Source of the DNA: a virus
Lineage: Duplodnaviria; Caudoviricetes
Virus record (IMG/VR): IMGVR_UViG_3300017565_000340
Location: 1 to 35,876 of that record
DNA: 35,876 bases
Reading direction: 5' to 3' (one strand)
Positions 832 to 28,100 of this stretch are shown one piece after another. The stretch's first letter is position 1. Every line of letters begins with the position of its first letter. Made by a program: the position numbers and the translations under genes. The notes under the pieces were generated by a model. The model saw nothing but the letters and a program-made list of their open reading frames with translations. It ran no database searches and was not told the origin of the DNA.

Positions 832-1058
832 TGCGTCCCGTCCGCCACCCCATCGTCACCGCCGATACCGCGCTGGCCGCTTGGCGCGCTCGCATTGGCC
901 TGACCCAGCGTGCCGCAGCTACAGCCCTCGGCATGAGCCTGAGCGCGTACCAGGAGCAGGAGCGCGGCGCCTCGTTCGCCGGCGAGCCGCGCAAACCGTC
1001 GCGCACCCTGCTGCTCGCGTGCGCAGCTGTCGAGCACGGGCTGGAGCCTATCGCGTGA
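828..1058 (+). CDS. XRE-family HTH protein, Aca-like (anti-CRISPR associated) regulator
   Basis: LAAWRARIGLTQRAAATALGMSLSAYQEQERG HTH motif; ATGA overlap with the acrIF11 stop; last gene of the acr operon. Confidence 0.8.
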   Translation: MMRPVRHPIVTADTALAAWRARIGLTQRAAATALGMSLSAYQEQERGASFAGEPRKPSRTLLLACAAVEHGLEPIA

Positions 1059-1497
1059 CCTCTACCGCCCATCGCTGCAGCGCCGTCAGTTGCTGCCGGA
1101 TGCGCTCGCAGTCGCGGCCGTACACATGGAGGGGCGCTGTAATATCTCGCCCAGGCGACAATACATGTCCTGGCTCCACGGCTGCATCGCCGCTGGTGGT
1201 GGGGGCGGGATTTGCGGGCGCAGCTGGGGCTTGCTCACACAGGCGGATAGGCTGAGGACGAGACAGATTGACGATGAGGCGCTGATCCAGCGCCTGCCGT
1301 TGCACATTGTCATTGGCGTCGATCTCCAGGGTTTTGTGGCGTAGCTGGGATTCTGCCGCCTGTGCGCGCTGGGTCTCTTTCAGCATCGCTGCCGCGTTGG
1401 CGTTCGCTTCCTGGTGCCGGCCGAGGAAATAGCTGCCGGCTGCGACGGCGATCACGGCTCCAAGGATGGCGAGCCATAGGCTACTGCTGCCCAGCAT
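1048..1497 (-). CDS. Rz: Inner-membrane spanin (Rz-like)
   Basis: N-terminal TM helix, Ala/Gln-rich coiled coil, Pro-rich linker, two Cys; last gene of the lysis cassette. Confidence 0.8.
   Translation of the reverse strand: MLGSSSLWLAILGAVIAVAAGSYFLGRHQEANANAAAMLKETQRAQAAESQLRHKTLEIDANDNVQRQALDQRLIVNLSRPQPIRLCEQAPAAPANPAPTTSGDAAVEPGHVLSPGRDITAPLHVYGRDCERIRQQLTALQRWAVEVTR
1086..1313 (-). CDS. Rz1: Outer-membrane spanin lipoprotein (Rz1-like), embedded in Rz
   Basis: Lipobox LSAC followed by Pro-rich PQIPPPPPAAMQP; nested in another frame of Rz. Exact start (1313 or 1307) uncertain. Confidence 0.8.
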   Translation of the reverse strand: MTMCNGRRWISASSSICLVLSLSACVSKPQLRPQIPPPPPAAMQPWSQDMYCRLGEILQRPSMCTAATASASGSN

Positions 1498-1687
1498 TGG
1501 TGTCGTCCGGGCTCTTGCCGCGATAGATATGATTCAACGCGACATCGCCGGCAGTGAACGCACCCAGGATCACGCCGACCAGCGTCACGAATTCGCCGCC
1601 CGTGAGTTTCGCGGAGAACGCAAATACACCGCAGCCGGTGATCGTGAACAGCAATGCAAGGATGAATTTTCGGCTCAAGTATTTCAT
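1481..1687 (-). CDS. Holin-like two-TM membrane protein
   Basis: 68 aa, SRKFILALL N-terminus, two hydrophobic segments, charged tail; lies between endolysin and Rz. Confidence 0.65.
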   Translation of the reverse strand: MKYLSRKFILALLFTITGCGVFAFSAKLTGGEFVTLVGVILGAFTAGDVALNHIYRGKSPDDTNAGQQ

Positions 1688-2031
1688 TTCACTCCACCTC
1701 TTTCCAGCGAATAGTGATTGCCATCCGGTTTGCGGAAGTCACCGCCCCATCGCGCAAGCTCGTGCATGGACTTCCATTTCTCACCGAGCGGTGCATGCGC
1801 TTCGCTGCGTGTCTGATACTTGCCGTCGATGTACAGGTCGAAGTCCACCGCGAGCCCGAGTAGATGCAGCGAATTCTTGATGCCCTTGCCGGCTTCCGCA
1901 TTAGCCTTCGCCTGCTGCGGGCTTCGCTTGGTCTCGCCGAACGCAACCTCGTAACCCGGCTGCGTGAATACCCATAGGCCGAATTCGCAGACCAGCCGGG
2001 TGAACAGACAGCGCTGTTCGCGTAGAGTCAT
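1684..2031 (-). CDS. Endolysin, M15-family Zn peptidase (L-Ala-D-Glu peptidase type)
   Basis: RS..QQA, SLH..GLAVD and WGGDF..PDGNHYS motifs; start ATG 2031 overlaps the upstream stop (ATGA). Confidence 0.9.
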   Translation of the reverse strand: MTLREQRCLFTRLVCEFGLWVFTQPGYEVAFGETKRSPQQAKANAEAGKGIKNSLHLLGLAVDFDLYIDGKYQTRSEAHAPLGEKWKSMHELARWGGDFRKPDGNHYSLERGGVK

Positions 2032-2210
2032 TTCCGCCCCAGCAACCGCTGCACGGTGTCGGTCTCGTAGATGCGGATCGCAACCCAGATGACCGAGAGG
2101 ACCGTGGCAACGTGAGGAAGCCAGCCCAAAAATGTTGCCACGATGGTTCCTATTGACATGCCGTCCAGTACGCTTTTGAACGGTGCGGATAGATGCTCGT
2201 AAGCGTGCAT
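2028..2210 (-). CDS. Holin-like small membrane protein
   Basis: 60 aa, hydrophobic core GTIVATFLGWLPHVATVLSVIWVAIRIYE; GGGGAG RBS; immediately upstream of the endolysin. Confidence 0.7.
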   Translation of the reverse strand: MHAYEHLSAPFKSVLDGMSIGTIVATFLGWLPHVATVLSVIWVAIRIYETDTVQRLLGRK

Positions 2211-2221
2211 CGCATGCTCCC

Positions 2222-2356
2222 CTAACGAGGCCGCTTCGGGCCGCTGGGCTTTCTGCCGCCGCCATACCCGTCGTCGTCATCATTACGACGAATGGCCCAC
2301 AGCACCAGCCCCACGAGAATGACGGTGCCAACGATTATCGCCAACGTGCTGTTCAT
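2222..2356 (-). CDS. 44-aa single-pass membrane microprotein (absent from ORF track)
   Basis: MNSTLAIIVGTVILVGLVLWAIRRNDDDDGYGGGRKPSGPKRPR; AGGAGA RBS; fills the gap in the late operon. Confidence 0.7.
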   Translation of the reverse strand: MNSTLAIIVGTVILVGLVLWAIRRNDDDDGYGGGRKPSGPKRPR

Positions 2357-2366
2357 GATCGATCTC

Positions 2367-2498
2367 CTACTTCAGACCGCTGCCAAAGCCATTGCCGGAG
2401 CCTGTGCCGCCCGGTTTCACCTTTTTACTGCGCCGAACCAACCAATAAATCATGCCGGCGAATGCAAGCGCGGTGACGATGCCGAAAAAGATTTGCAT
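2367..2498 (-). CDS. 43-aa single-pass membrane microprotein (absent from ORF track)
   Basis: MQIFFGIVTALAFAGMIYWLVRRSKKVKPGGTGSGNGFGSGLK; starts 2 nt after the upstream stop. Confidence 0.65.
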   Translation of the reverse strand: MQIFFGIVTALAFAGMIYWLVRRSKKVKPGGTGSGNGFGSGLK

Positions 2499-2500
2499 GG

Positions 2501-3022
2501 CTAAAATCCTACGACGTGAGTGGTGGTGAGGGTGATATCAACTGAGTCAGACAGCCCCGACCCCGCGTCGGTCGCGGTGCATCGAAACGTGCCTACATAA
2601 ACGGACCCAGCACCGCCAGAGGCTGGAGCAGATCGACTGAATGTCGTCGAAGCGGATGACGGCGATGCAATCGTCGCGTTCGTGCCGCTCACATAGGTCC
2701 ATGCGTAGGTGACCGAGCCCACCGGGTTATTACCGGTGCAGGTGATGGACGGGACAAATGCCGTGCATGAGCCCGCCGACGGCGTCACGCATGCGCCAGT
2801 GCCCGTGCTGTCGTCTACGCTGACCGAGAACGCACTGAAGACAAGCCGCTGAACGCCAGCGCTCTCTATATATGTACGCTTGATGTCGAGGTTCGCCCCG
2901 CCGCTTTCGATGAACAGCCGAACCGTGGGGCGGTTGACGCCGGAACTCTCGACGATGGTCTGCTGACCGTGTGCCGCCAGGCAAACGACGCATGCGACCA
3001 GGGCTGTGAGCAACTTGCACAT
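2501..3022 (-). CDS. Putative tail-fibre tip adhesin (PKD/Ig-like C-terminal domain) with Sec-type signal peptide
   Basis: Follows the fibre gene; three-fold (I/F/Y)(V/I)ES.G repeat near the N-terminus; TYAWT..ATIASPSSASTTF..GTFRCTATD Ig-like pattern; signal MCKLLTALVACVVCLAAHG|Q. Confidence 0.6.
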   Translation of the reverse strand: MCKLLTALVACVVCLAAHGQQTIVESSGVNRPTVRLFIESGGANLDIKRTYIESAGVQRLVFSAFSVSVDDSTGTGACVTPSAGSCTAFVPSITCTGNNPVGSVTYAWTYVSGTNATIASPSSASTTFSRSAPASGGAGSVYVGTFRCTATDAGSGLSDSVDITLTTTHVVGF

Positions 3023-3023
3023 G

Positions 3024-3986
3024 TCAGTAGCAGTAGGTGATTCGGCCGTCCTCGCCGCTCACGGATGGCGGGCACGAGGAATTAGGAAGGAGCTGCTTGG
3101 TGGTCCCGACCTTGCCGGTGATGTTCCTGGCGTAGCCGGCCCCCATGTGTTGGGTTACGTTGGATTGCACGATCCGTGCGTCTGGCATATTCCCGGTGAG
3201 CTGAGACGCGGCAATCGCCAGGGCTGCTTGATGCTGGGTGACCGCCGCTTGAGGCACCCGAGCGCTGGGGATCGAGCCTGCATTGAGATTGCTCGCGCTG
3301 AGGTAGTATGCCGAACTCTGGCCGTCGAGCAGATCAGCGTCGAGACCGCTGCCGGAACCATCCACGGTCAGCAGCAGCGACAGGATCTGGGCTGCCGTCA
3401 TTTCTGTGAGTGGATTCACCAACACGAACTGCGTGCCAGAGGCCACCAGAAATGCCGGGATACCGGCCACCAGGTCATTGGCAACCAGTGCCGTGCCGTT
3501 GCGCTTGACGATGGCGCGGGCCGTGAGGCCGTTCACCGATAGCGTCGCCGCACCAGTATTGCTGTTCGTCGGCACGAATGAGATAGGCATGCCGGTGGTG
3601 TAGGACGAGATTGACGGCACCAGGCTACCCACGTAGGTATCGGTGCCCGAAACGCTCGTCAGCGTCTGCATTGAGAAGTTCTGGACTTGCCCGGCCGCGG
3701 CGTACTGGTTACCCGAGGTCGCGTTGGCCACGTTCGTGTGCTTGAACCCGCCCATCGGCAAGTTGGCGCTCGGGACCGTCTGTCCGTCCTTGGAAAGGCT
3801 GTTGGTGAGCGCTGTAGCGATATCAGACAGGGTCGTATTCGCCCAGGTCGAATCGATGGTGGTGCCGGTGACGACGGGGTTGCCGGCCGGCAGGCTGTAG
3901 GTGCCCGAGCCGTCCCGGCTGGCCCAGGTGATGCCAATGGCCGCAACCGCGAGTGCGGCCATGCTGGACTTGATGTAGGATTTCAT
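3024..3986 (-). CDS. Tail fibre protein with an N-terminal Sec-type signal peptide
   Basis: SRDGSGTYSLPAGNPVVTGTTI.STWANTTLSDIA podovirus fibre anchor; VDGSGSGLDADLLDG fibre motif; 22-aa leader ending T-W-A. Confidence 0.85.
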   Translation of the reverse strand: MKSYIKSSMAALAVAAIGITWASRDGSGTYSLPAGNPVVTGTTIDSTWANTTLSDIATALTNSLSKDGQTVPSANLPMGGFKHTNVANATSGNQYAAAGQVQNFSMQTLTSVSGTDTYVGSLVPSISSYTTGMPISFVPTNSNTGAATLSVNGLTARAIVKRNGTALVANDLVAGIPAFLVASGTQFVLVNPLTEMTAAQILSLLLTVDGSGSGLDADLLDGQSSAYYLSASNLNAGSIPSARVPQAAVTQHQAALAIAASQLTGNMPDARIVQSNVTQHMGAGYARNITGKVGTTKQLLPNSSCPPSVSGEDGRITYCY

Positions 3987-5692
3987 GTTCCCGTCTCCAA
4001 GATAATCCCTTGCCGCGCAAGGGCAGCGGCCAATGCCCGGCGACGAGCGGCTTCGCGAGTTTCGTTACGCACCGTGCCGCCGGTGCCAGTAGCTGAGCCG
4101 GATGCAGTGCTCTGTCCTGCGGCTGTTCTGGTAATCGCTTGACCCAGGCGATCGCCGGCGCGGGACGCTGCGCGCGCCCCGGCCTGTGCACGCACGGCGA
4201 GGTCCACCGCAGGAGTGCTCGTGTAGGCGCGACTGGCGAGACTCATGGGAATCCGTGCGACCAAGTCTGTCGCGCTTTGCAGCGGCATGCGTGTTGCTGT
4301 ACCGGAGTCACCGACAATCGGCGCGAATGCCTGAGAGAAGCGCGCCGCGTCGTACATCGGCGATTCGTTCTCTCCGAACATGTAGCCGCGCCGATCCTTC
4401 GACTGCAGCAAATTGGCGAGCGAACGGCCGCTCACATCGCCTTTGGCTGGGTTTACAACGCCGACGCGCTGTGTGAGCAGCATCAAATTGCGGTATTGTT
4501 GGCGCGCGGTACCCAGCGCAGCAGCCCTCTCAGGCGACAGCCCTTGCCCAAGCAGATCGTCCACGTAGTCCTTGACCCGATACAGAGCAATGCCGAGATC
4601 TCGGTCTCCGCTCGGCGTCGTCATGCTCTTGTAGGCAGCCTTTCCGAGCTTGCTGCTCAGCGAACTGAGCTGCCGACCGTCTGCGGTGCCTTCCTGAGCG
4701 AATCGAACGACATCTTCGACGAGTGGATGGCTGTCGAGCCCTTGCACGAGTCCGCGCATGTCGTCCTTGAGTCCAGCATAGAACTGCAGGAACTGACGTG
4801 GCTCGATCGTACGCGGTACGTCGTCAGCAACATCCTGAAAGACATTGCCAATGCGATCCGCGGCACGCGCGAGCACGCCAGCATCGACCACATCCGCGGA
4901 CTCACCGATAGCCTCGGCCGCGCTCCTATTGAGCACAGACGCGTTGTTGGCCTTCAGTGCATTGAAGGGCCCAGACGTCATCGGCTGGGACTCAAGTTTG
5001 GCTTCAAACTGCTGAAGGGCCCTTGATCCCGTAGCCTGCCCAGGCGTCAACCGCATGCCGAGTTCTCGCCCACGGTCCGCAATGCGCTGCATAGTCGGCG
5101 TCAGGCCGGCGGACTCGTCGGCACCGACGCTGCCGAACGTGGAGCCGCCGCCGGTGGTGCGTATCTCTGGAGCCACACGCGCCTCGGCTCCGGCTGTCGC
5201 TTGGCCGGGTGACAGGCGCGCAGCGGCCTGCGCATCCGCCGCGCTTGATGAGCTTGCCGTCGATGCGGCCGGGCTACGTACTGGCACAGTTAACGACGCT
5301 GGCGCACCCTTGATCTGGGGCACGGGCAGACGCGAACCGGCGATGGCGCTCCCAACGATGTTCACGCCCTTCTCGATTCCTGACTCCGGAGTCGGAAACA
5401 CACGAGACATTGCCTGCTCGTACATCTGCGACGGCAGTTCGTAATCTTCACCAGCGATCGCATTGCGAGTGGCGACGCCGGCATTTGCCGCCAGCAAAGG
5501 TAGTGCCGTCAGGGCGTCGATGGGCAGCCTGGCGGTAAGACCAAACTGGCGCTTCACCTGATCGAGAAAGTTGGGCGCCTGCTGCTCCGCACGCTCGTTC
5601 GTGGCGTACTTCTCCCAGGGCTTAGCATCGTTGCTGTTTCCAGCATCGTGCAGATCGCCCTGCTGCGCATACCTTGCCCAGGGGCCGCTCAC
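3983..5692 (-). CDS. Internal virion / DNA ejection protein
   Basis: 569 aa, Ala-rich helical; N-terminal PW..Y motifs; third of three genes between nozzle/GNAT and fibre. Confidence 0.7.
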   Translation of the reverse strand: MSGPWARYAQQGDLHDAGNSNDAKPWEKYATNERAEQQAPNFLDQVKRQFGLTARLPIDALTALPLLAANAGVATRNAIAGEDYELPSQMYEQAMSRVFPTPESGIEKGVNIVGSAIAGSRLPVPQIKGAPASLTVPVRSPAASTASSSSAADAQAAARLSPGQATAGAEARVAPEIRTTGGGSTFGSVGADESAGLTPTMQRIADRGRELGMRLTPGQATGSRALQQFEAKLESQPMTSGPFNALKANNASVLNRSAAEAIGESADVVDAGVLARAADRIGNVFQDVADDVPRTIEPRQFLQFYAGLKDDMRGLVQGLDSHPLVEDVVRFAQEGTADGRQLSSLSSKLGKAAYKSMTTPSGDRDLGIALYRVKDYVDDLLGQGLSPERAAALGTARQQYRNLMLLTQRVGVVNPAKGDVSGRSLANLLQSKDRRGYMFGENESPMYDAARFSQAFAPIVGDSGTATRMPLQSATDLVARIPMSLASRAYTSTPAVDLAVRAQAGARAASRAGDRLGQAITRTAAGQSTASGSATGTGGTVRNETREAARRRALAAALARQGIILETGT

Positions 5693-6963
5693 TGAACCGG
5701 CTCCCAGCTATTAGGATCCGCGGGGTCACCGCCCTTGAAACGATAGCCGCCTTCCTCGGCGCCTATGGCGGGCGCGCCGTCCGGCGCTGCAGGCGGCGAA
5801 GACTGAGCAGTTCCGGCTCCGAGCAAATTCGTATAGCCGTTCTCAATCAGCGCCAGCATGTCCTCCAGGCCCTGGATCTTGTCGGCCGTCGTGGTCTCGT
5901 AGTCCGAGCGCGACGGAAATTTCGACTGATCGAGCTTTGTTTCATAGTCGGACATCGAGCCAACGCCCGGCACACGAGTGAGTGCGGTCAACGTGCTGCG
6001 CATCTGATCGACGCGCCCGTCGAACAGCTTTCCGGCTTGGGTCGGCAGCATTCCTTGTCCAGGACCAAAAGCGTTGATGCCCTGACGACCCTGCTCGAAG
6101 GCTTCCTTCACCTTGGCGAGCTGCTGACGCGCAAGTGCAACCGTATTCAGCTTCATCCGCGCCGTGGTCGCGTCCCTCTGACTCAGCACGCCGGTGTTGT
6201 CGCGCTTGGAGATCACGCTGATCTCGCCAGTCTGCGGGTTCCTCTGCGCCGCCGTGCCGGCCGGCAGTCCGGCTGTCACTATTTCCTCTGGCGTCAACGA
6301 TACCCACGTTGCCGGCGCCTTCTCAGGCTTCGGCGCGACGCGCTGCAGGTCGCCGATGTTCCCGCTTTGCATGTAACGCGCGAGCGATTCAGTCGTGAAG
6401 TCGGAAGGGTTTATGTTCCCAATTTGCGCGCCAGCCCGTTCCGCTGCCGGAAGCGAAGCGACGGGCTTACCGTCTGCGGTGAAACGCTGCTCGCCAGGCT
6501 TGAGCGTAAATCCTTCCTGGGGCTTCTGGGCAGGCGGAAACAACGACCGAAGCGCCTGCCCGCCCACGATCTGCCGGTACTGATCGAGTGGCAGTCCTTC
6601 CATCAGCTGAGCCGCGGCACGCTCACGCGCGGCGGGATCACCGGTGTCGACCAGGCCGGAAGGCGATGCCGAGGCCGGCCCTTGTTGCTGCGGCTGCGCG
6701 CCGCCACCCCGCATCTGGCCCAGCGCATCGGTCAGTCGCTTGCGCTCCGCGTCGTCGGCCGCCGTCTGGTCCTGGTCGGCCTTGTGTTCCGCATAGGCGC
6801 CGCCAATGCCCGCCGCGAGCCGACCAAGCGCCGAAAACGGTGTTGGGCCGACGTAGAACCTCCCGCCCTGCTGCTGCGGCTGCGTGTTGGCCTGCTGCAT
6901 GAGCATCTGTGCGATCTGGCGGCGGCGATCGATCTGCCGAGTTTGCTGGTCGTAGGTGGGCAT
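5689..6963 (-). CDS. Internal virion / DNA ejection protein
   Basis: 424 aa, Gln/Ala-rich; FTLKPGEQRF motif; C-terminal GGYRFKGGDPADPNSWE. Confidence 0.7.
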   Translation of the reverse strand: MPTYDQQTRQIDRRRQIAQMLMQQANTQPQQQGGRFYVGPTPFSALGRLAAGIGGAYAEHKADQDQTAADDAERKRLTDALGQMRGGGAQPQQQGPASASPSGLVDTGDPAARERAAAQLMEGLPLDQYRQIVGGQALRSLFPPAQKPQEGFTLKPGEQRFTADGKPVASLPAAERAGAQIGNINPSDFTTESLARYMQSGNIGDLQRVAPKPEKAPATWVSLTPEEIVTAGLPAGTAAQRNPQTGEISVISKRDNTGVLSQRDATTARMKLNTVALARQQLAKVKEAFEQGRQGINAFGPGQGMLPTQAGKLFDGRVDQMRSTLTALTRVPGVGSMSDYETKLDQSKFPSRSDYETTTADKIQGLEDMLALIENGYTNLLGAGTAQSSPPAAPDGAPAIGAEEGGYRFKGGDPADPNSWEPVQ

Positions 6964-8159
6964 TACACTGCCTCCAGCAAATGCTCAGCGCCGATGGCCG
7001 CATAGTTCACCCGGTCATAACCGTCATCGCCAACAGTGACGGCATCCGGCCTGATCTGACGCACGTCATCCGACATGACGCCCAGCCGCTCTTGCGACTC
7101 GCCCTTGTAGCGATACCGATAGGTCGGGATGCCGTTCGGCAGAATTCCGACACGCGCTATGCTCTCCTTCGCTCGACGGTCAGAACTCATCGCCATCATC
7201 GCGGCAATGCTCGCCAGGCTGATTCCGGTCTGCGTATTCTGCGCGTTGCGCTGCTGTCGATAGTTGTACATGTCGGTCTGGGCGCCATACTGGTTGTTGA
7301 TCGCCCCCATGTAGTCAACGGGTGCTGGGCTGCCAACGTTTGCCGCGGCCCCTGAGTTCATCCCCTGACCCGCACCGCCGCCGCCATACAGCTGCAAGAA
7401 TTCCTGCATCGGAATGTTGCGCTCCGTCAGCCGCTCATTGATGCCCGTGGCGCGGCCCTGGTTTGTCAATTCGGCGTTGGTGATTCGCTCGCCGAACTGC
7501 TGTCCGGCGCGGTCCATGTCGCTCTGACGCACGCGCAGCGCATCTGAGAGCATGCGTGACGCCTCGCTGCCGCCGGCTTGAATGGCCCGGTCTCGCGCAT
7601 CGCCGTAAGCGGCCTGCTTGGTTCGATCGAGGGCGGCCATTTCATTGTTCCAAGCCTCGCTGCCTTCCCGCAGGCCCTGGTTGAGCAGGCGCGTGCGTGT
7701 TGCTTCCCCCTGCTGCTGGAACTGAGGGTCGAGCATTCGCGTCGCTGCACCATAGGTCGCGTCCTCAGCGCGCTGGCGAGCGCCGGCAATATCGCGCTGC
7801 TCGACTGGAATACCACCAACATTCGATTCCTGGACGCCAGTGACCTGTGACGGCAGGCCATTGAGGTTGAACGCGCCTTGGTTTGCGACCTGGCCCAGCC
7901 GGCCAGCTGCGGCCGATCCCATGTTGGTCTGGTTCTGCTGCTGCAGGTCGAATATGGCCTGCTGCTCAGGAGACAGTTCGGTAGTTTGCTCCCAGCGATC
8001 ACCGCCGAGATCTTTGTAGGTCGTGGATCCGAACGGGTTTCGCTCGTTGACGCGATTCAGCGCCGCTCCAGCGCGCAGCGCCTCCAGGTTCAAGCGCCCT
8101 TGTTCGCGCGCGGCCCCGACGTAATCGGGGGCCGGAGGCGGGCTGCCACCACCACTCAT
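6963..8159 (-). CDS. Ejection/pilot protein with C-terminal peptidase S74-like intramolecular chaperone domain
   Basis: N-terminal SPPPAPDY, Gln-rich body; C-terminal SSDRRAKESI..Y.Y.YKG..GVM..V..PDAV..GY..VNY. Confidence 0.75.
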   Translation of the reverse strand: MSGGGSPPPAPDYVGAAREQGRLNLEALRAGAALNRVNERNPFGSTTYKDLGGDRWEQTTELSPEQQAIFDLQQQNQTNMGSAAAGRLGQVANQGAFNLNGLPSQVTGVQESNVGGIPVEQRDIAGARQRAEDATYGAATRMLDPQFQQQGEATRTRLLNQGLREGSEAWNNEMAALDRTKQAAYGDARDRAIQAGGSEASRMLSDALRVRQSDMDRAGQQFGERITNAELTNQGRATGINERLTERNIPMQEFLQLYGGGGAGQGMNSGAAANVGSPAPVDYMGAINNQYGAQTDMYNYRQQRNAQNTQTGISLASIAAMMAMSSDRRAKESIARVGILPNGIPTYRYRYKGESQERLGVMSDDVRQIRPDAVTVGDDGYDRVNYAAIGAEHLLEAV

Positions 8160-8163
8160 GATT

Positions 8164-8586
8164 TCACCTTAGCCACTGACAGTCCTTCGCGTGCAGCGCG
8201 TAGACGAACATGTCGCCGTCCGGTGCTGCGTGAGCGAGGGTGGCCTCGCGGTGAAAGCCCAGGCGCGTCAGAAAGCGTTGCGAGACCGTGTTGGCCTCGT
8301 ACACCAGCGCGGAGATACGCTGGCACCCAAGCTGTCTGAAGGGATAATCGAAGATGACCCGTAGCGCGTGCCGGGTTGCCCAGCGACGCTGGAATGCAGG
8401 GTCAACGGCGATTGCCGCCCAGACGTTAGCGCCGTTGTACATCGTGTAGGCTACGCCCGCAACAAGTGATTCTCCACAGGTGAAGCCTATTGCCGCGCCC
8501 TGTCCCTTGACCCATTGCCCCCGAGTGCGCGCGAATATCCAAGTACCAACATCATCGTCCGCCCCGACCAGGGCATTCAGGTTCAT
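8164..8586 (-). CDS. GNAT-family N-acetyltransferase (tail-module associated)
   Basis: IFDYPFRQLGCQRISALV..N..SQRFLTRLGFHREA; start set to ATG 8586 (ATGA overlap with the nozzle stop). Confidence 0.85.
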   Translation of the reverse strand: MNLNALVGADDDVGTWIFARTRGQWVKGQGAAIGFTCGESLVAGVAYTMYNGANVWAAIAVDPAFQRRWATRHALRVIFDYPFRQLGCQRISALVYEANTVSQRFLTRLGFHREATLAHAAPDGDMFVYALHAKDCQWLR

Positions 8587-10163
8587 ATCTCGCCCGGTTC
8601 GAAGACATAGGAGATCGCAGACAGATGCACGTTGGATTTGCTGCTCTTGATGGTCATGTGGAAGGCACCGGTAAACCCGATGCCCTCGGCGCCATACCAA
8701 TCCTTGAGCAGTTGAATTTCGCCGCCCCACTGCGACTGATCCCACGTCCCAGCATCCCATTGCGCGCCGGTTGACTGTGGAAGCGTTACGGCTCCAGTGG
8801 GCGCGGTGGAAATGAAATCAACATCGACGCCAATCAATATTTCTGCGGGGTTCGAGTCCCATCCGATGATGGGTCGCACCATCGTGAAATGCTTGGTCAC
8901 ATTGGAGTTACTGAACGCGCTGAATGCGCACAGCACCTCCGACTCAATGGCAAGCCCAAGGTCCGCGGTGCCGGTCCAGGCTTTGCAGACAGCGCCCTTC
9001 GCGCCAAAATACAGCTGACCGTTGAACACCTCGAAGCAGTTGGCCGGCCAGCCAGGGTTTGCGCCCATCGGGCGGAACCGGCACCAGCGCTTCGTCACGG
9101 TGTTCATGACGAACTGCTGCTGCAGACCGGAGGCAACTGGCACATTGACCAACAGCATGGTGCCGGCCGGGAACAGCGTGGCCTCCCAGCCAAACGTCGA
9201 TCCGTACAATTGCACGGCAGTCGCCATGGCAGTTTGAATCGCATCCGTGATGGCAACCGTCCGATCCTCTTTCGCCTTCGCCAGACGTGAACAGGGGATG
9301 ACACCGTCCGTCGTGATAATCAGCAGATCACCGCCCAGTTGCTCCAGGCAGCGCCGACCAATGGGCGTACCAATGGTGTAAAGCCCGACTTTGGCCCACG
9401 TCGAGGACGATGCGGGGTCTGTGCCGGCATAGACGGCCACCTCGCCCTCGCTCGTCACGAATACCGCCAGGTCGTCTGATCCGTCGCCGCCATCGAGCGT
9501 CCAGGTGCCCATGGCCATCAGGTAGCCGCCCTTCTTGAACACGGAGCCCAGCGGAAACTTAGTGAGCGCCCCAGCGAACGCCCCCGCATCCGAATACCAA
9601 ACATCGAGCGAATTCGCCGGGATGTACCAAACGCGCTCCTTATGTACATGGATGCCAACCAGGGTATTTGTCGCCACGCTAGTGATCGCGGGACTGGTAC
9701 CAGCGTCGATGGTGGTCCAGGACGACCCGTCATAGCGCAGCATGTCATCAGCGCCATTCACGCACAGCAGCTCGTGACCACCGCCGCTCGCGGTGAAATT
9801 TACATGCTGCCAGCGCGCATGCGTCAGACTACCGACCAGCGCCGAGCCGACCGTTCCCGCGCTCGATACGTCGTAAAGGGAGTCTCCGGCCCAGCCAAAT
9901 AGTTTCTGGTTGCCGGACTCGGGCCGATATGCCGCGAGCGTTTGCACCTCAGCACCACTACCGATGTCGGTAACATGCGCCGCTGATCCCTTGCGCAGCA
10001 TGATGTCCGAGGCCTGCGGAAACCAGTTGTCCAGAATGACCGCGTCTGCCTCGTGCATCGAGGCAATCGAATCGTGCGCGTTCCAGCCGCGAACCGGCGC
10101 TGGCTTGGTCCTCGCTATCGCGACCCGCTTACGCCCGGAACCGCCCCCGGCTGGCGTTCTCAC
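8583..10163 (-). CDS. Tail nozzle / head-closure protein (P22 gp10 / tail tubular B-like)
   Basis: 526 aa, beta-propeller-like composition, PAPVRGWNA N-terminus; follows the adaptor gene. Confidence 0.8.
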   Translation of the reverse strand: MRTPAGGGSGRKRVAIARTKPAPVRGWNAHDSIASMHEADAVILDNWFPQASDIMLRKGSAAHVTDIGSGAEVQTLAAYRPESGNQKLFGWAGDSLYDVSSAGTVGSALVGSLTHARWQHVNFTASGGGHELLCVNGADDMLRYDGSSWTTIDAGTSPAITSVATNTLVGIHVHKERVWYIPANSLDVWYSDAGAFAGALTKFPLGSVFKKGGYLMAMGTWTLDGGDGSDDLAVFVTSEGEVAVYAGTDPASSSTWAKVGLYTIGTPIGRRCLEQLGGDLLIITTDGVIPCSRLAKAKEDRTVAITDAIQTAMATAVQLYGSTFGWEATLFPAGTMLLVNVPVASGLQQQFVMNTVTKRWCRFRPMGANPGWPANCFEVFNGQLYFGAKGAVCKAWTGTADLGLAIESEVLCAFSAFSNSNVTKHFTMVRPIIGWDSNPAEILIGVDVDFISTAPTGAVTLPQSTGAQWDAGTWDQSQWGGEIQLLKDWYGAEGIGFTGAFHMTIKSSKSNVHLSAISYVFEPGEI

Positions 10164-10876
10164 AGCGGCCAGCTACCAGGTGACACGGCAAAGCGCCGCT
10201 CGCGCGTCGGCGTACCGGCAGCCAGAGACAGCGCGCGCTTGGTGCCGTCGCGGTCCATGGCCACGGCGACCAAGCGTTCGTAGGAATTGAATTCCTCTGC
10301 GTAGCTCAGTCCCTTGGCTTTCCGCCATCGCCAATCCAATCCCGCGATCATGATTTCGGCGTCGAGGACCACCTCGTCCTCATCCTTCGTGATCGCGCTG
10401 CGCTGCTCCTGTCCGTCGTCGGACGTGCACCAGTTCCGAGTCACATACTCGAATGCGATTTCCTCACCCGCGCCCGGAGCCGGTAATAGCAACAGATGAC
10501 TGCCGCGGATTCGATACTCAGTGTACGGGCCCGTGCGGCCAAGCGTCTTCGCTACCTGCCAATCCACCGAACTTTTCGGACCGTAGATTGGCTGATTCGT
10601 GGATCGATTCCACAGCGTATCGTTGAGGATGTGCCGATAGGCGTTCGGTGCGCCGATGATGTCCGTGAGCGACCCCTGGTCCTCAGCTGCCGCCGATGGG
10701 AAGGTTTTCTCACGGACGAGAACCTCCCAGTCGTAACGCACGGAAAGCTGCCGGCCTTCCGAATTCAGCAGACCCAACAGCTGCCGGATCGAGGTATCGC
10801 TCGACCCGGTGACAGTATTGGGTTGCGGCAATCCGATGTTCTGGCAGGCCGCGCGGACAATCTCAAGCGCGTTCAT
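10160..10876 (-). CDS. Head-tail adaptor (tail tubular A-like)
   Basis: MNALEIV..AC..IGLP.P, LN..G..L...YDW..L and W.WRKAKGLSYAEEF..YE patterns; synteny. Confidence 0.8.
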   Translation of the reverse strand: MNALEIVRAACQNIGLPQPNTVTGSSDTSIRQLLGLLNSEGRQLSVRYDWEVLVREKTFPSAAAEDQGSLTDIIGAPNAYRHILNDTLWNRSTNQPIYGPKSSVDWQVAKTLGRTGPYTEYRIRGSHLLLLPAPGAGEEIAFEYVTRNWCTSDDGQEQRSAITKDEDEVVLDAEIMIAGLDWRWRKAKGLSYAEEFNSYERLVAVAMDRDGTKRALSLAAGTPTRERRFAVSPGSWPL

Positions 10877-14282: not shown

Positions 14283-14666
14283 CTATTCGCTCCCGTCGAG
14301 AGCCGCGCGTTTCTGCGGCGGCAGTTGGTGCCACGCTCGATGCGCGGCGTCGGTCAATTTCGTATCGTCCTTGGCCTCCTTGTAGGCGCGCTGTCGCGCG
14401 GCCTCCTTGCGCTCCTGATCGAACCCTTCCCATGGGCGTGACCTTGAGCGCTTGAAGTCGTCACGCCGTGCTGTGCGCGTACCGATCACGCGCCCCGTCG
14501 TAGGCGAGACATACGCCTGAATATCGTCCTGCACGAATGAGCCACTGATAATTCGATTCATCCGCTGTCCGCAGCAGCTCGGCACATGATCATTGCGCTC
14601 ATCGACGATGGCGAAATAGTCGGCCCGCCGATGGCAAACACCGCATTCGGCCTCGTATACCGGCAT
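14283..14666 (-). CDS. FmdB-like zinc-ribbon protein
   Basis: MPVYEAECGVC...PSCCGQRMNRIIS, then YVSP.TG..I.TR..RR. Confidence 0.8.
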   Translation of the reverse strand: MPVYEAECGVCHRRADYFAIVDERNDHVPSCCGQRMNRIISGSFVQDDIQAYVSPTTGRVIGTRTARRDDFKRSRSRPWEGFDQERKEAARQRAYKEAKDDTKLTDAAHRAWHQLPPQKRAALDGSE

Positions 14667-15121
14667 CAGGCAGCCTCGCTCACGCAGACGTCGCCGGCCT
14701 GCTTCAGTCCGATGCCGCCCAGCACCAAGTCAGGTGTACCTGTGGACACGATGACCTCGCCCCGCGCCGTCATGCCCCAGCCCGCAACATGACAGGCAAT
14801 CGCCCCCGCAAGCAGCACGCACATGGCGCCATCGGGCCGGCGAGCAATGCCACCGTGGTGGGTCACTGCTCCGCTCGCAGGCCAGGGGCAAACGTAGCGC
14901 TGGCCAGTCTGTGAGTGAGCGAAGCCGTTGATGTAGACCGCCCCGGCCGGCACAGGCACGCCATCGCCCAGATAGATCGTGCCGATGACGCCGGTATCGT
15001 CAACGGCAGTCCCGCCGACGAAACCGCCACCGCCCGCGGGGGGCGGTACGCTGTCGTCCCTCCATAGGCCGTCCTTCCAGAGGCCCTCCTTCCAGACGCC
15101 ATCTGTCCAGACCTTGGACAT
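14666..15121 (-). CDS. Hypothetical virion-associated protein with N-terminal Trp pentad repeat
   Basis: 151 aa; VWTDGVWKEGLWKDGLW then PPPAGGGG linker; coupled to both neighbours. Confidence 0.7.
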   Translation of the reverse strand: MSKVWTDGVWKEGLWKDGLWRDDSVPPPAGGGGFVGGTAVDDTGVIGTIYLGDGVPVPAGAVYINGFAHSQTGQRYVCPWPASGAVTHHGGIARRPDGAMCVLLAGAIACHVAGWGMTARGEVIVSTGTPDLVLGGIGLKQAGDVCVSEAA

Positions 15122-16056
15122 TACGGCACCACATCAAACGGATTGGCCGACCCGTCGCCGGTCAGGGTCTTGCCGTTGATCTTGCTGATATTCACGCCGA
15201 TCAACAGCTGATCGACAATGCCGTCAATGACTGCGGTCGCCGACGACAGGCCACTCAGCTGGGTATCCAGATTCGCCGACGACAACCCCAATGCGGTGCG
15301 CACATTGCCCTGCGCCGTCGAGGTGAGCCCATTGACCGTGCCTCCCACGTTGCCCGTTACAGAGCCCACCGAGCCCGACAGGCTGCCAGTGATATCACCC
15401 ACAATGTCGAACGTCTGCGTGCCGGTAATCGTGCCTGAGGGCGTGGGCCACAGCTCCCAGTAATCGCCGTTGGTCAGCGTGAGCGCGGTTGACGGAGCGA
15501 ACGTCGCAACACCCGTGCCCGTGTCGTATGACGTGATGACTGCCGCAAAATGACGCGCAGGGATCACCAGTGTCATGCCGGCAAGCTGGCTGGTGGATCC
15601 AGGTGCATTGGTGCCCAGATCGGCCGTAGTGGAACTGTGCGTGCCGCTCAACGTACCGCGCGCGTCTTGGCCGGCATTGACCTTGCGCAGGCTGAAACTG
15701 CACACCGGCTGGCCGACCACCGATACGCTATCTACCGTACCCGTGGTGATGACCGCCTCATAGTTGGAGCCCGGCGTATATGCTGCATCCGTGGTCACAA
15801 CTCGCAGATGATTCAGCCCGGTGCGCGCGTCAAAATCGGCCGTCAGCGTGACGCCGGCCGTGATCTCGGTCGTGCCGTTGTCCTTGTAGATCGACACCAC
15901 CGGGGTGCCGGCCAGCGTATAGCTCGCGCCCGTGCTCGGACGGACCGTGCCGAAATTGCAATCGACCGTATCACCGGGCGCGTAATCACCCACGTAGCCG
16001 CCGGCAAATGCGCTGGCAGCAAACAGCAACCCGAGCAGCGTGATGTAACGTTTCAT
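15121..16056 (-). CDS. Thr/Gly/Ser-rich fibre-like protein with Sec-type signal peptide
   Basis: Start set to ATG 16056 (AGGA RBS): MKRYITLLGLLFAASAFA|GGYVGD; GSVGSVTGNVGG fibre-like repeats. Confidence 0.75.
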   Translation of the reverse strand: MKRYITLLGLLFAASAFAGGYVGDYAPGDTVDCNFGTVRPSTGASYTLAGTPVVSIYKDNGTTEITAGVTLTADFDARTGLNHLRVVTTDAAYTPGSNYEAVITTGTVDSVSVVGQPVCSFSLRKVNAGQDARGTLSGTHSSTTADLGTNAPGSTSQLAGMTLVIPARHFAAVITSYDTGTGVATFAPSTALTLTNGDYWELWPTPSGTITGTQTFDIVGDITGSLSGSVGSVTGNVGGTVNGLTSTAQGNVRTALGLSSANLDTQLSGLSSATAVIDGIVDQLLIGVNISKINGKTLTGDGSANPFDVVP

Positions 16057-16066
16057 GACTGATTTC

Positions 16067-16660
16067 CTATCGCGTGATTGGAGCAGCAGCAGGACCGCAG
16101 CGGCCGGAAATTGGGTTGCAGACGGTGCCGCTTGCGGCATCAGTGATGGCAAAAACGCCGTACCGGTTGCCGGTGCTGGTGCTGATAACGAATGGATCGG
16201 CCAGCGGGGTGGCGCCCGTCGCCGCACTCAGCTTGGCATGACCTGACGCAACGAATTCGCGGGCTGTATTCACGGTGTTAATGAATCGAAATGCGACGAT
16301 GTATTCAATGCCCGGCGTGAGCGCCCAGCTGACCGAAGCGATCGCACGCTCATCCCCGCCGCCGATTACTCGAGAAACGGTCGCGCTGCCAATTTCGGCC
16401 AGCGTGTCCTTTCGGTAGACGCCAACTTCAACCTGCTCACCGGATGGAAAGTTGCCGACAAACCAGAACCCGACTGCCGTTACGTTCTCCCCTACAACGG
16501 CAACCCTGGATTCGCTGGTCGCGTAACTCAGGTAATGGGCATCGGAGGAACTGCCGGTATAGCCACTGGCAAACCTGACGTCGTTTCCAATCGTTGCCGC
16601 GAACGACAGCGACGCAACACACCACAGTAAGGCCGCCAGGAGAACCTTTTTGGCTATCAT
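16067..16660 (-). CDS. Beta-rich protein with Sec-type signal peptide
   Basis: MIAKKVLLAALLWCVASLSFA|A; VEVGVY and ALTPG.EYIVAF beta-sandwich-like pattern; ATGA coupled to the upstream gene. Confidence 0.75.
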   Translation of the reverse strand: MIAKKVLLAALLWCVASLSFAATIGNDVRFASGYTGSSSDAHYLSYATSESRVAVVGENVTAVGFWFVGNFPSGEQVEVGVYRKDTLAEIGSATVSRVIGGGDERAIASVSWALTPGIEYIVAFRFINTVNTAREFVASGHAKLSAATGATPLADPFVISTSTGNRYGVFAITDAASGTVCNPISGRCGPAAAPITR

Positions 16661-17718
16661 GCGAGGTCATCCAGGTTGATGAATTTGTTACCGAACTCGT
16701 CAATGCCCGTGAGGGTGGCGAGGGTCTTATGGAAGGCCATCAACTGGGTGTAGCATTTTTGATCTTGCGTGGGATAGTCAGGAGGGTGTCCACCTGGACG
16801 GTCGCCGCCATTCCAATACGTGAATATCAACACGCCACTGAGCCACGAATCTGCGAAGCCCAGGTACTTCTTGGGGGTCCCGCCGCTAACAGTAATATCC
16901 TGGGTCTTCCACTCACCATCTTGAAACCAGTTGATGTACCTGTCGCCCAGGTACTCCATCGCAAGCTGATTGTCGTACCACAGCCTCCAGACTTGACTGG
17001 CTATATCGCTGTAAGATGGGGTGATCGCGACGCAAATATCATGGTACTGCCCATCCACCTCCAGGCATCTGTCGCACACCTTCAGAAAATTATCTTGGTT
17101 ATGCAGCCCAAGCTCGCTGTACATGGTCCAGCCATTAGGGACGCCGCCTGATCCCCACGCAATGTGATTATCCAGGCGACCAACACCGGTCGCAGTGGGA
17201 TCGCTCTGGCTACCACGAAGGAATTTTGTGAAGCCAGCCAAATCTGTAGTGAAGTCGAACCCCACAGGAAATTTCATGCGGACCGCATACCACATGGTTT
17301 CGCCGGCATATACCTTCGGGACCCCGGCGCTGGTGGAGATGCCCCCACCGAAACCTCCGTTTGTGGATGGACTGCCGCCGTTCCAGCCTCCACTGGAATT
17401 CTTTTGAATGCTGTATTCTGCGCAAGTCGTCTTTCCAGCCGCGGCCTCCCCGGACACTGCTCTAGCCCCATAACCGTTCGTGTACCTGCCCCAATAGGAA
17501 TGGCGCTTCCCTGCTACCCCAGTCCCTTCGTCCACTGAGCCAATCGCATTCCCAGGTGTTAGCCCATCGAAATCGATCAGAAGGTCGGGCGTGAACGATC
17601 CACCACCCCCGCCCCCCGGCGTCGGAAACAGCCGCGCCCCGCTCTGTATGATCGGCCCAGCCATGGCGGCGGGGATAAACAGGCCAGAGGTTGAGGCGAG
17701 GAATTGGCGGCGGTTCAT
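16657..17718 (-). CDS. Tat-signal protein, putative jelly-roll polysaccharide lyase / lectin-like domain
   Basis: MNRRQFL..AMA|G twin-arginine signal; Gly linker; GETMWYAVRMKFPVGFDF..KFLR, GQYHDI.V, RLWYDNQL and FTYWNGG patterns. Fold call is tentative. Confidence 0.7.
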   Translation of the reverse strand: MNRRQFLASTSGLFIPAAMAGPIIQSGARLFPTPGGGGGGSFTPDLLIDFDGLTPGNAIGSVDEGTGVAGKRHSYWGRYTNGYGARAVSGEAAAGKTTCAEYSIQKNSSGGWNGGSPSTNGGFGGGISTSAGVPKVYAGETMWYAVRMKFPVGFDFTTDLAGFTKFLRGSQSDPTATGVGRLDNHIAWGSGGVPNGWTMYSELGLHNQDNFLKVCDRCLEVDGQYHDICVAITPSYSDIASQVWRLWYDNQLAMEYLGDRYINWFQDGEWKTQDITVSGGTPKKYLGFADSWLSGVLIFTYWNGGDRPGGHPPDYPTQDQKCYTQLMAFHKTLATLTGIDEFGNKFINLDDLA

Positions 17719-27446: not shown

Positions 27447-28100
27447 ATGAGATGGCCATTGGCGTGCCTGGCTTTCCTAGCGCTGGGCGGCTGCGCTACT
27501 TCCTACCAATCAACAGGCTTCACTGGCGGCTTTTCCGAAACTCAGCTGGCGCCAAACATCTTCCGGGTGAAGTTTCGCGGGAACAGCTATACAAGCGATG
27601 AGCGCACGTCTGATTTCGCGCTGCTTCGTGCCGCCGACCTCACGCTCCTGAATGGATATAAATACTTCGGCGTTGCCGCTGAAGGTACCAACTACTCATC
27701 TCAAGCAGTGACGATGCCGAGCACGTCATCAACTGCAATTACCACGTCCTCAACGGGCAATTGGGCATACGCAACGACCACGACGACTCCAGGTCAAACG
27801 CTATTTTTCCGCTTCCCCTCATCTACCAGCACAATCATTTGCTTCAAGGAAAACCCGAACGGCGATTTGTTCGATGCCACCTTTGTGGCTCGATCAATCC
27901 GTCAGAAGTATCGGATTAAGACTCCGCCGCCGAAATCTGATGATGAGCTGGATGCAGAGGCGCGCGCATTCCTTGCTGATCCGCGCTACCCACACGCCAG
28001 GGAGGTCTCCAAAACCATGGTGGAACTCCTCAACTCTGGCCAAGCAAATACCCTCCAAGAAGCTTACGCCCTCGCGGTGAAACAGGCCGGGCTTAAATAG
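27447..28100 (+). CDS. Lipoprotein (CC0125/CC1285-like) with C-terminal scaffold-homologous segment; candidate lysogenic exclusion factor
   Basis: Lipobox LGGC; GG.SETQL..N.FRV.FRGN.YTS..R..DFALLRAA.LTL..GY.YF; GGGGAGG RBS; lies between cI and OL. Confidence 0.8.
   Translation: MRWPLACLAFLALGGCATSYQSTGFTGGFSETQLAPNIFRVKFRGNSYTSDERTSDFALLRAADLTLLNGYKYFGVAAEGTNYSSQAVTMPSTSSTAITTSSTGNWAYATTTTTPGQTLFFRFPSSTSTIICFKENPNGDLFDATFVARSIRQKYRIKTPPPKSDDELDAEARAFLADPRYPHAREVSKTMVELLNSGQANTLQEAYALAVKQAGLK

Follow-up and report, generated by a model that had tools for sequence, protein, structure and literature searches.

The window, by which the whole stretch of DNA analysed here is meant, is a provirus of 35,876 bases that is 96% complete, Mx8-like and podoviral. 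Its minus strand encodes terminase, portal, scaffold, major capsid protein, adaptor, nozzle and an acetyltransferase, as well as three proteins of the ejection type, a single fibre, a protein of 173 residues (2501-3022) and a lysis cassette that includes spanins. The adaptor, nozzle and first ejection protein fall into the same PHROG families as Mx8 p51, p52 and p54, and the fibre gene lies behind the adaptor, nozzle and ejection genes and before the lysis genes, which is the slot of the Mx8/Pr lineage. The features that bear on the fibre are as follows.

3983..3998, minus: ribosome-binding site GGAG (3995-3998), and ATGA, in which the start overlaps the stop of the ejection-type gene upstream
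3921..3986, minus: predicted Sec-type signal peptide of 22 residues, site T-W-A / S, replacing the fibre's Met1 (from leader scoring and homologue junctions)
3681..3920, minus: N-terminal anchor domain (residues 23-102), conserved in podovirus tail fibres of the Mx8/Pr lineage and present once in the genome
3411..3665, minus: beta domain, about residues 108-192, related to the Pseudomonas phage Pa193 gp47 tail fibre, PDB 9b45 (E 2e-9; Foldseek E 5e-5)
3117..3410, minus: fibre shaft repeats (PHROG tail-fibre matches, residues 190-290, best E 1e-10)
3024..3116, minus: C-terminal motif preceding the tip-adhesin gene, here with Cys305/Cys319
2501..3022, minus: tip adhesin-like protein with its own signal peptide (predicted A-H-G / Q, residue 19), a triple repeat as in leaderless adhesins, a PKD-like domain and 4 mature Cys
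3983..8159, minus: three leaderless ejection-type proteins, the first with an S74 domain like phiGT1 gp17
8583..10876, minus: leaderless tail nozzle (tube B) and adaptor (tube A), of the PHROG families of Mx8 p52 and p51; presumed docking site
15121..16056, minus: second leader-grafted fibre-like protein, with an Ig-like N-domain and Cys33/Cys119 where leaderless homologues mostly have Phe/Gly
16067..16660, minus: protein with a Sec leader and a Cys pair at the C-terminus, family unknown
16657..17718, minus: polysaccharide-lyase-like protein with a twin-arginine (R-R-Q-F-L) leader
1048..2210, minus: lysis cassette of holin-like ORFs, an M15 endolysin and a spanin pair, as for a diderm host

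On the minus strand, positions 3986-3921 read MKSYIKSSMAALAVAAIGITWA, followed by S-R-D-G-S-G-T-Y-S-L-P, in which the anchor consensus x-R-[DN]-G-x-G-x-Y-x-L-P is present. The leader is 22 residues long and stands on the provirus's single tail-fibre gene (3024-3986, minus). A sequence-only reading had described a 22-residue leader ahead of this anchor start, and all of the elements that it described are present. It had also held that the codon before Ser is no start codon and that the ATG has a GGAG ribosome-binding site and ATGA coupling, and each of these points is borne out: the codon at the leader/anchor junction is GCC, GGAG lies 8 nt upstream of the fibre ATG, and the upstream gene (3983-5692, minus) terminates in E-T-G-T-stop, with its TGA overlapping that ATG. 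Met1 and Met9 are the only in-frame ATGs within the leader. No sigma-70-like site was found in 2300-6000, where 0.8 were expected, which is a weak sign; together with the ATGA coupling, it fits late-operon expression. A 7-bp hairpin at 4007-4023 (minus), just upstream of the fibre ribosome-binding site and inside the upstream gene, is not above chance.

By a crude signal-peptide heuristic of our own, the fibre leader scores 4.75, with the site after residue 22, and none of 3478 background windows, drawn from eight of this phage's cytoplasmic proteins, reaches 4.3. At the called starts of 19 late-region genes, five pass this crude heuristic: those of the fibre and adhesin and three that lie between portal and scaffold. 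The fibre's T-W-A / S site has the Sec and signal peptidase I features of small residues at -3 and -1 and no Pro at +1, with Trp at -2, and no R-R of a Tat signal occurs in the leader. That the leader is a start-calling or assembly artefact is scarcely credible, and this explanation was rejected: there is no alternative start, the ribosome-binding site and ATGA serve Met1, and a leader is found in 33 other homologues and in two cultured phages, Mx8 and Mx9. One contig covers the whole stretch with 0 differences, and since it may be the source of the window this agreement is not independent; among contigs of three other runs, none spans the leader junction.

A homologue search gave 3175 relatives, of which 120 were listed and classed by their starts: 82 begin at Met, 34 (the window included) carry a leader, 3 have a leader joined to an anchor of another type and 1 has an unrelated N-terminus. 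The 116 listed homologues that bear the anchor are thus either Met-start or leader-bearing, with none intermediate. The leaderless start that the sequence-only reading had given is right, being M-[A33/S30/P17]-R-[D47/N35]-G among the 82, two of which begin M-R, and the outcome that it named as refuting, a similar uncleaved extension in homologues generally, was not found, given that 82 of 116 start at Met. The window's fibre, with its 22-residue leader, differs from the leaderless cytoplasmic synthesis of the cultured alpha- and gammaproteobacterial members. The three proteins with the other anchor type (P0007, P0022 and P0041; x-N/S-Y-S-T-T-P) have a window-type fibre body and also signal peptides, and they represent a separate graft.

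Tabulation of homologue N-termini, a check that the same reading had proposed, showed that the leaders, of 22-28 residues, end exactly in place of Met in all 34 leader-bearing homologues. Each has K or R within its first 7 residues, and the best 10-residue hydropathy has a mean of 2.81 and a minimum of 2.28 (n=34). Residue -1 is Ala in 29 and Gly in 5, residue -3 is A/T/S in 22 and L/I in 12, residue -2 is Met in 11, and residue +1 is A/G/P/S/T in all 34. A lipoprotein or Tat signal on the fibre was rejected, since Cys, the lipoprotein residue, never occurs at +1 in the 34 and the window's leader lacks R-R. Because a predicted secretion signal stands exactly where most relatives start at Met, the fibre is likely to fold outside the cytoplasm. 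Methionine aminopeptidase removes Met before Ala, Ser and Pro, so that the first residue would be the same after Met removal as after cleavage by signal peptidase, which would explain the exactness of the graft. The claim that cleavage regenerates the native N-terminus stands as regards exact replacement of Met1 (34/34), but not as a universal rule, given that Pro occupies +1 in 9 of the 34.

These junctions also bear on the reading that the leader is an uncleaved or slowly cleaved tether, such that the fibre would stay attached at the periplasmic side of the inner membrane until a late release or a cut at another site, with its N-terminus not exactly regenerated. The nine leaders with Pro at +1, which have L/I at -3 (L/I-M-A/G then Pro), would agree with it, as would the other instances of L/I at -3 and the window's Trp at -2. 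According to the accessible part of one study of the E. coli enzyme, signal peptidase I is impaired by Pro at P1', and in one of the contexts tested a Trp at P2 made cleavage slower (PMC10269814). The tether is nevertheless quite unlikely, in that it needs no such exactness as Ala or Gly at -1 in every leader, A/T/S at -3 in most and a fixed position relative to the anchor, and the peptidases of the hosts may differ from that of E. coli. The subclass with L/I-M-A/G before Pro (P0010, P0011, P0013, P0014, P0043, P0046, P0053, P0081, P0089; L048, L050, L179) is expected to resist signal peptidase I.

Both kinds of start were also found by further searches. With a leader-blind profile, 15,326 representatives were found, the best 150 of which comprise 16 leader-bearing proteins, 124 Met starts, 2 longer called starts with short extra residues and 8 repeat proteins. 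Fetched DNA gave 193 distinct anchors, with 158 Met starts, 14 extended (13 without L218, which is leaderless), 20 divergent or partial and 1 unclear, in a set that is enriched by the search patterns and is not an estimate of frequency. Patterns applied to viral-contig DNA gave 4 leader-type stretches and about 400 Met-type, the two patterns differing in strictness. A hidden, uncalled leader in the leaderless homologues was rejected, given that an in-frame stop lies within 15 codons upstream in 127 of 158 leaderless loci and that none of the 12 most hydrophobic stretches upstream of such loci is a Met-started leader.

The anchor is retained behind the leader. Of 30 columns with a conservation of 80% or above in 232 leaderless anchors, 26 are equally conserved in 45 leader forms and the remaining 4 stand at 62-76%. 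A profile search finds one copy of the anchor in the window and one in the entire Mx8 genome. Seven leader-bearing phages require 5 changes on a tree of 39 adaptor proteins, on which the nearest neighbour of the window (L198) is leaderless. A single origin of the leader was rejected on this tree, where one clade of leader-bearing phages has an AU p of 0.00019 (quick, LG+G4). An anchor-only tree gives 12 changes, 4 of them forced by well-supported branches, and since it has few columns the question of origins rests on the adaptor tree. By the tree, the second anchor type and the second-family cassette in other layouts, the graft was gained or moved more than once.

Structure prediction gives an AlphaFold fibre monomer of pLDDT 65 and pTM 0.37 with a largely helical anchor, and the beta domain is the only part of the model with a Foldseek match (E 5e-5). 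Solved structures provided no match for the anchor by sequence or Foldseek, and no sequence match for the adaptor or the 151-residue ORF described below. Prediction of a complex of two adaptors with three anchors gave a score of 0.00 and a mark of 0.32, which weighs neither for nor against docking, and a single-sequence fold of the N-domain of the second family was poor (pLDDT 51). No Pfam or NCBIfam model matches the fibre, and the Pfam S74 model has no match in it.

The parity of the cysteine count differs between the two classes of fibre. The count of mature Cys is odd in 1 of 34 leader-bearing fibres (16 have none and 17 an even number) and in 42 of 82 leaderless ones, with a Fisher p of 5e-6 for parity in Cys-bearing fibres, relatedness being ignored. 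In the leader-blind set, odd counts occur in 0 of 16 leader-bearing and 64 of 121 leaderless fibres, and the Cys305/Cys319 pair of the C-terminal motif is confined, among the 120 listed homologues, to leader-bearing fibres. A second family, that of the protein at 15121-16056, behaves similarly: its best 120 relatives comprise 30 leader-bearing, 88 leaderless, 1 truncated and 1 with a miscalled start, and the Cys33/Cys119 pair and an even Cys count (2-10) occur in all 30 leader forms. The pair is found in none of the 88 leaderless forms, where the commonest residues at these columns are Phe and Gly. Although the counts in both families ignore kinship, the pairing suggests that the leader-bearing proteins pass through an oxidising environment. 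Disulfides seem to follow from export and are unlikely to be its original cause, since 16 of 34 leader-bearing fibres are without Cys.

A dual fate for the fibre may be weighed here, in which some of the fibre stays in the cytoplasm, through inefficient export or an internal start, and arms the virion, while the exported fraction has another role. It would retain textbook cytoplasmic assembly, and Met9 in the window's leader and the Met at -2 in other leaders could be taken as internal starts. The junction of the window has no start codon, however, a start at Met9 would leave 14 hydrophobic residues, and the -2 Met in L047 and L048 is not preceded by a Shine-Dalgarno-like run. The strict Cys pairing further suggests that the oxidised form is the working one, and we regard a dual fate as very unlikely.

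The gene behind the fibre is also leader-bearing. The C-terminal motif of the fibre precedes a small repeat-bearing adhesin in many phages, and 107 loci fetched by the motif gave 75 distinct pairs with a recognisable adhesin, all of the adhesins being leaderless, although the pattern demanded Trp and the Cys variant of the window was outside its reach. Where the start of the fibre is visible, both partners start at Met in 38 of 38 pairs and none is mixed. Pairs in which both have leaders were seen at the DNA level only in the window and L002, and two close homologues of the adhesin are also leader-bearing. The motif and triple-repeat adhesin form a widespread two-gene module (L270-L376) that is joined to many unrelated fibre N-termini, some of them in proteins of about 1540 residues. 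In L180, a leader-bearing fibre with 8 Cys is followed by further large Cys-rich or leader-like ORFs (about 2800-10000, minus).

Between portal and scaffold (14666-17718, minus) lie the Tat-leader polysaccharide-lyase-like protein, a Sec-leader protein, the Sec-leader Ig-anchor fibre and a leaderless 151-residue protein with W-x-x-G-x-W repeats, which may be a docking base made in the cytoplasm. As judged from ORF sequences, the same leader-bearing cassette is found in other layouts, with T7-like tail genes in L262, with an HK97-like head and long tail in L263 and in a Mu-like transposase region in L265, as well as in L264. A leaderless ORF with aromatic repeats again comes after the cassette in L263 and L265. 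None of the four phages with the second leader family has a match to the window's fibre, in records that are 26-77% complete.

The same graft is carried by two cultured phages. Mx8 p64 (AF396866, AAK94399) and Mx9 p14 (OQ709411, WFG54121) have the anchor of the window (profile E 2e-24) behind a 28-residue leader with the junction A-S-A / T-R-N, as well as 2 mature Cys, a leader-bearing next gene on the same strand, and adaptor and nozzle families shared with the window. They differ from the window in body and C-terminus and have no repeat-type adhesin, and, unlike in the window, inverted (opposite-strand) ORFs separate their fibre genes from the late genes. Being cut off in this way, the Mx8 and Mx9 fibre genes may have a promoter of their own. 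The fibres are annotated as 'p64' or 'putative tail fiber protein', and the leader is unmentioned in the feature tables examined. The fibres are followed by Cys-rich leader-bearing proteins (L266:17308-18506 and L267:6467-7192), and Mx9 p15, which matches a PHROG 'lipase' family, overlaps Mx8 p67 in sequence.

Leaderless relatives indicate what the family does. Sulfitobacter phage phiGT1 gp21, Stenotrophomonas phage BUCT555 and Brucella phage Tb ORF22 have the same anchor domain and the same slot behind the ejection genes, but, in contrast to the window, their Met directly precedes the anchor and as a class they show no Cys pairing. The phiGT1 protein matches the anchor profile (E 6e-9), and mass spectrometry found it in virions at 0.64 spectra per kDa, with 18 copies expected (PMC10386132 Table S3); the S74-bearing gp17 is given there as an ejection protein (PMC10386132). 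Presence of gp21 in virions implies that the leaderless form of this fibre family is a virion fibre. Cellulophaga phage phi18:3 gp085-087 (KC821620) have signal-peptide-like leaders, as in the window, and their record reads 'structural protein ... MS/MS proteomics', although mass spectrometry of particles can include co-purifying proteins. They are unrelated to the window's fibre, with no anchor match, a Bacteroidota host and few Cys.

Tailed virions are built in the cytoplasm, which counts in favour of a fibre that is exported without becoming part of the virion, whether as a receptor-masking decoy or as a surface adhesin of the infected cell or lysogen. The record of Mx8 is compatible with such a role, in that it gives a virion structural label to p45, p48, p49, p56 and p57 and none to p64, and the exported cassette includes the polysaccharide-lyase-like protein. 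The nearest published analogue found, the MAT fibres of Bdellovibrio bacteriovorus, consists of phage-like trimeric fibres that are displayed on the cell surface behind signal peptides, according to the accessible part of the source (PMC10769870). The MAT fibres are bacterial genes with their own conserved beta-rich N-domain of about 130 residues, often an S74 C-terminus and, as far as that part of the source goes, no virion anchor (PMC10769870), whereas the window has a phage late gene with an anchor predicted to be largely helical and no Pfam S74 match. A decoy or adhesin is unlikely, because neither the window nor Mx8 has another anchor-bearing gene, so that the particle would lack a side fibre. 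Against it also are the continued conservation of the anchor, the translational coupling of the fibre gene behind an ejection gene and the listing of leader-bearing phi18:3 proteins among virion proteins.

Direct observations are the leader and its exact position in place of Met1, an intact anchor in single copy, late-operon coupling, leaders on both fibre and adhesin, paired Cys and the same graft in Mx8 and Mx9. We favour, with fair confidence, a route of Sec export, cleavage after Ala22, periplasmic folding and docking on the tail at lysis. In short, a Sec signal peptide would send the fibre, and the likewise exported adhesin, to the periplasm, where signal peptidase would cut the fibre after Ala22 and the fibre would fold and oxidise with its tip adhesin. 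Holin and spanin action would then mix the compartments, such that the fibre could dock on a tail hub built in the cytoplasm. In P22 and T4, fibres and tailspikes can join the particle last and spontaneously. Export with oxidative folding of the fibre is highly probable, cleavage to give S-R-D-G is likely, and docking on the virion at lysis is reasonably probable. We lean slightly towards the broader view that a second, extracytoplasmic line of assembly operates in many tailed phages. On this view, fibres, adhesins and lyase-bearing accessory fibres made via Sec or Tat would fold and oxidise in the periplasm before arming the finished particle at lysis, and the Met1 graft would be a repeatable evolutionary switch, used by Mx8.

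The fibre family is known, and the export step is new as far as the literature was searched. A search that covered few subscription journals found no report of exported tailed-phage fibres, and the text of the Tunturi paper contains 0 occurrences of 'signal peptide'. The pIII and pVIII proteins of filamentous phage are virion proteins made with signal peptides; they are membrane-embedded coat proteins of a non-lytic, extruded particle rather than parts of a tailed phage. If the only tail fibre is secreted, the last assembly step comes after the inner membrane fails, disulfides could become available to receptor-binding proteins, and particles would be unarmed while still inside the cell. The protein belongs to a known fibre family, of which it is a variant, and the assembly route, if shown, would be of a new kind. 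Leader-bearing fibres, now easily dismissed as lysogenic extras, would be annotated differently, and their expression for structural work would change. Mx8 p64 and Mx9 make the export route testable in a cultured phage with a standard laboratory host.

The host of the provirus can be approached from the flank of the source contig (L183), which encodes PrsK, a TIGR03013 glycosyltransferase and bacterioferritin, and these genes point to a diderm with an XrtA/PEP-CTERM system; no tRNA was called in L183. The leader-type DNA pattern gave 2 stretches in 185,579 genomes, both chance matches in unrelated genes, so that no named host among these genomes carries it. Two single-helix membrane peptides of 43-44 residues with basic Gly-rich tails are encoded between the adhesin and lysis genes (2367-2498 and 2222-2356, minus). 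Directly behind the repressor, a lipoprotein of the CC0125/CC1285 family (27447-28100, plus; NCBIfam E 8.5e-25) is a candidate superinfection-exclusion gene.
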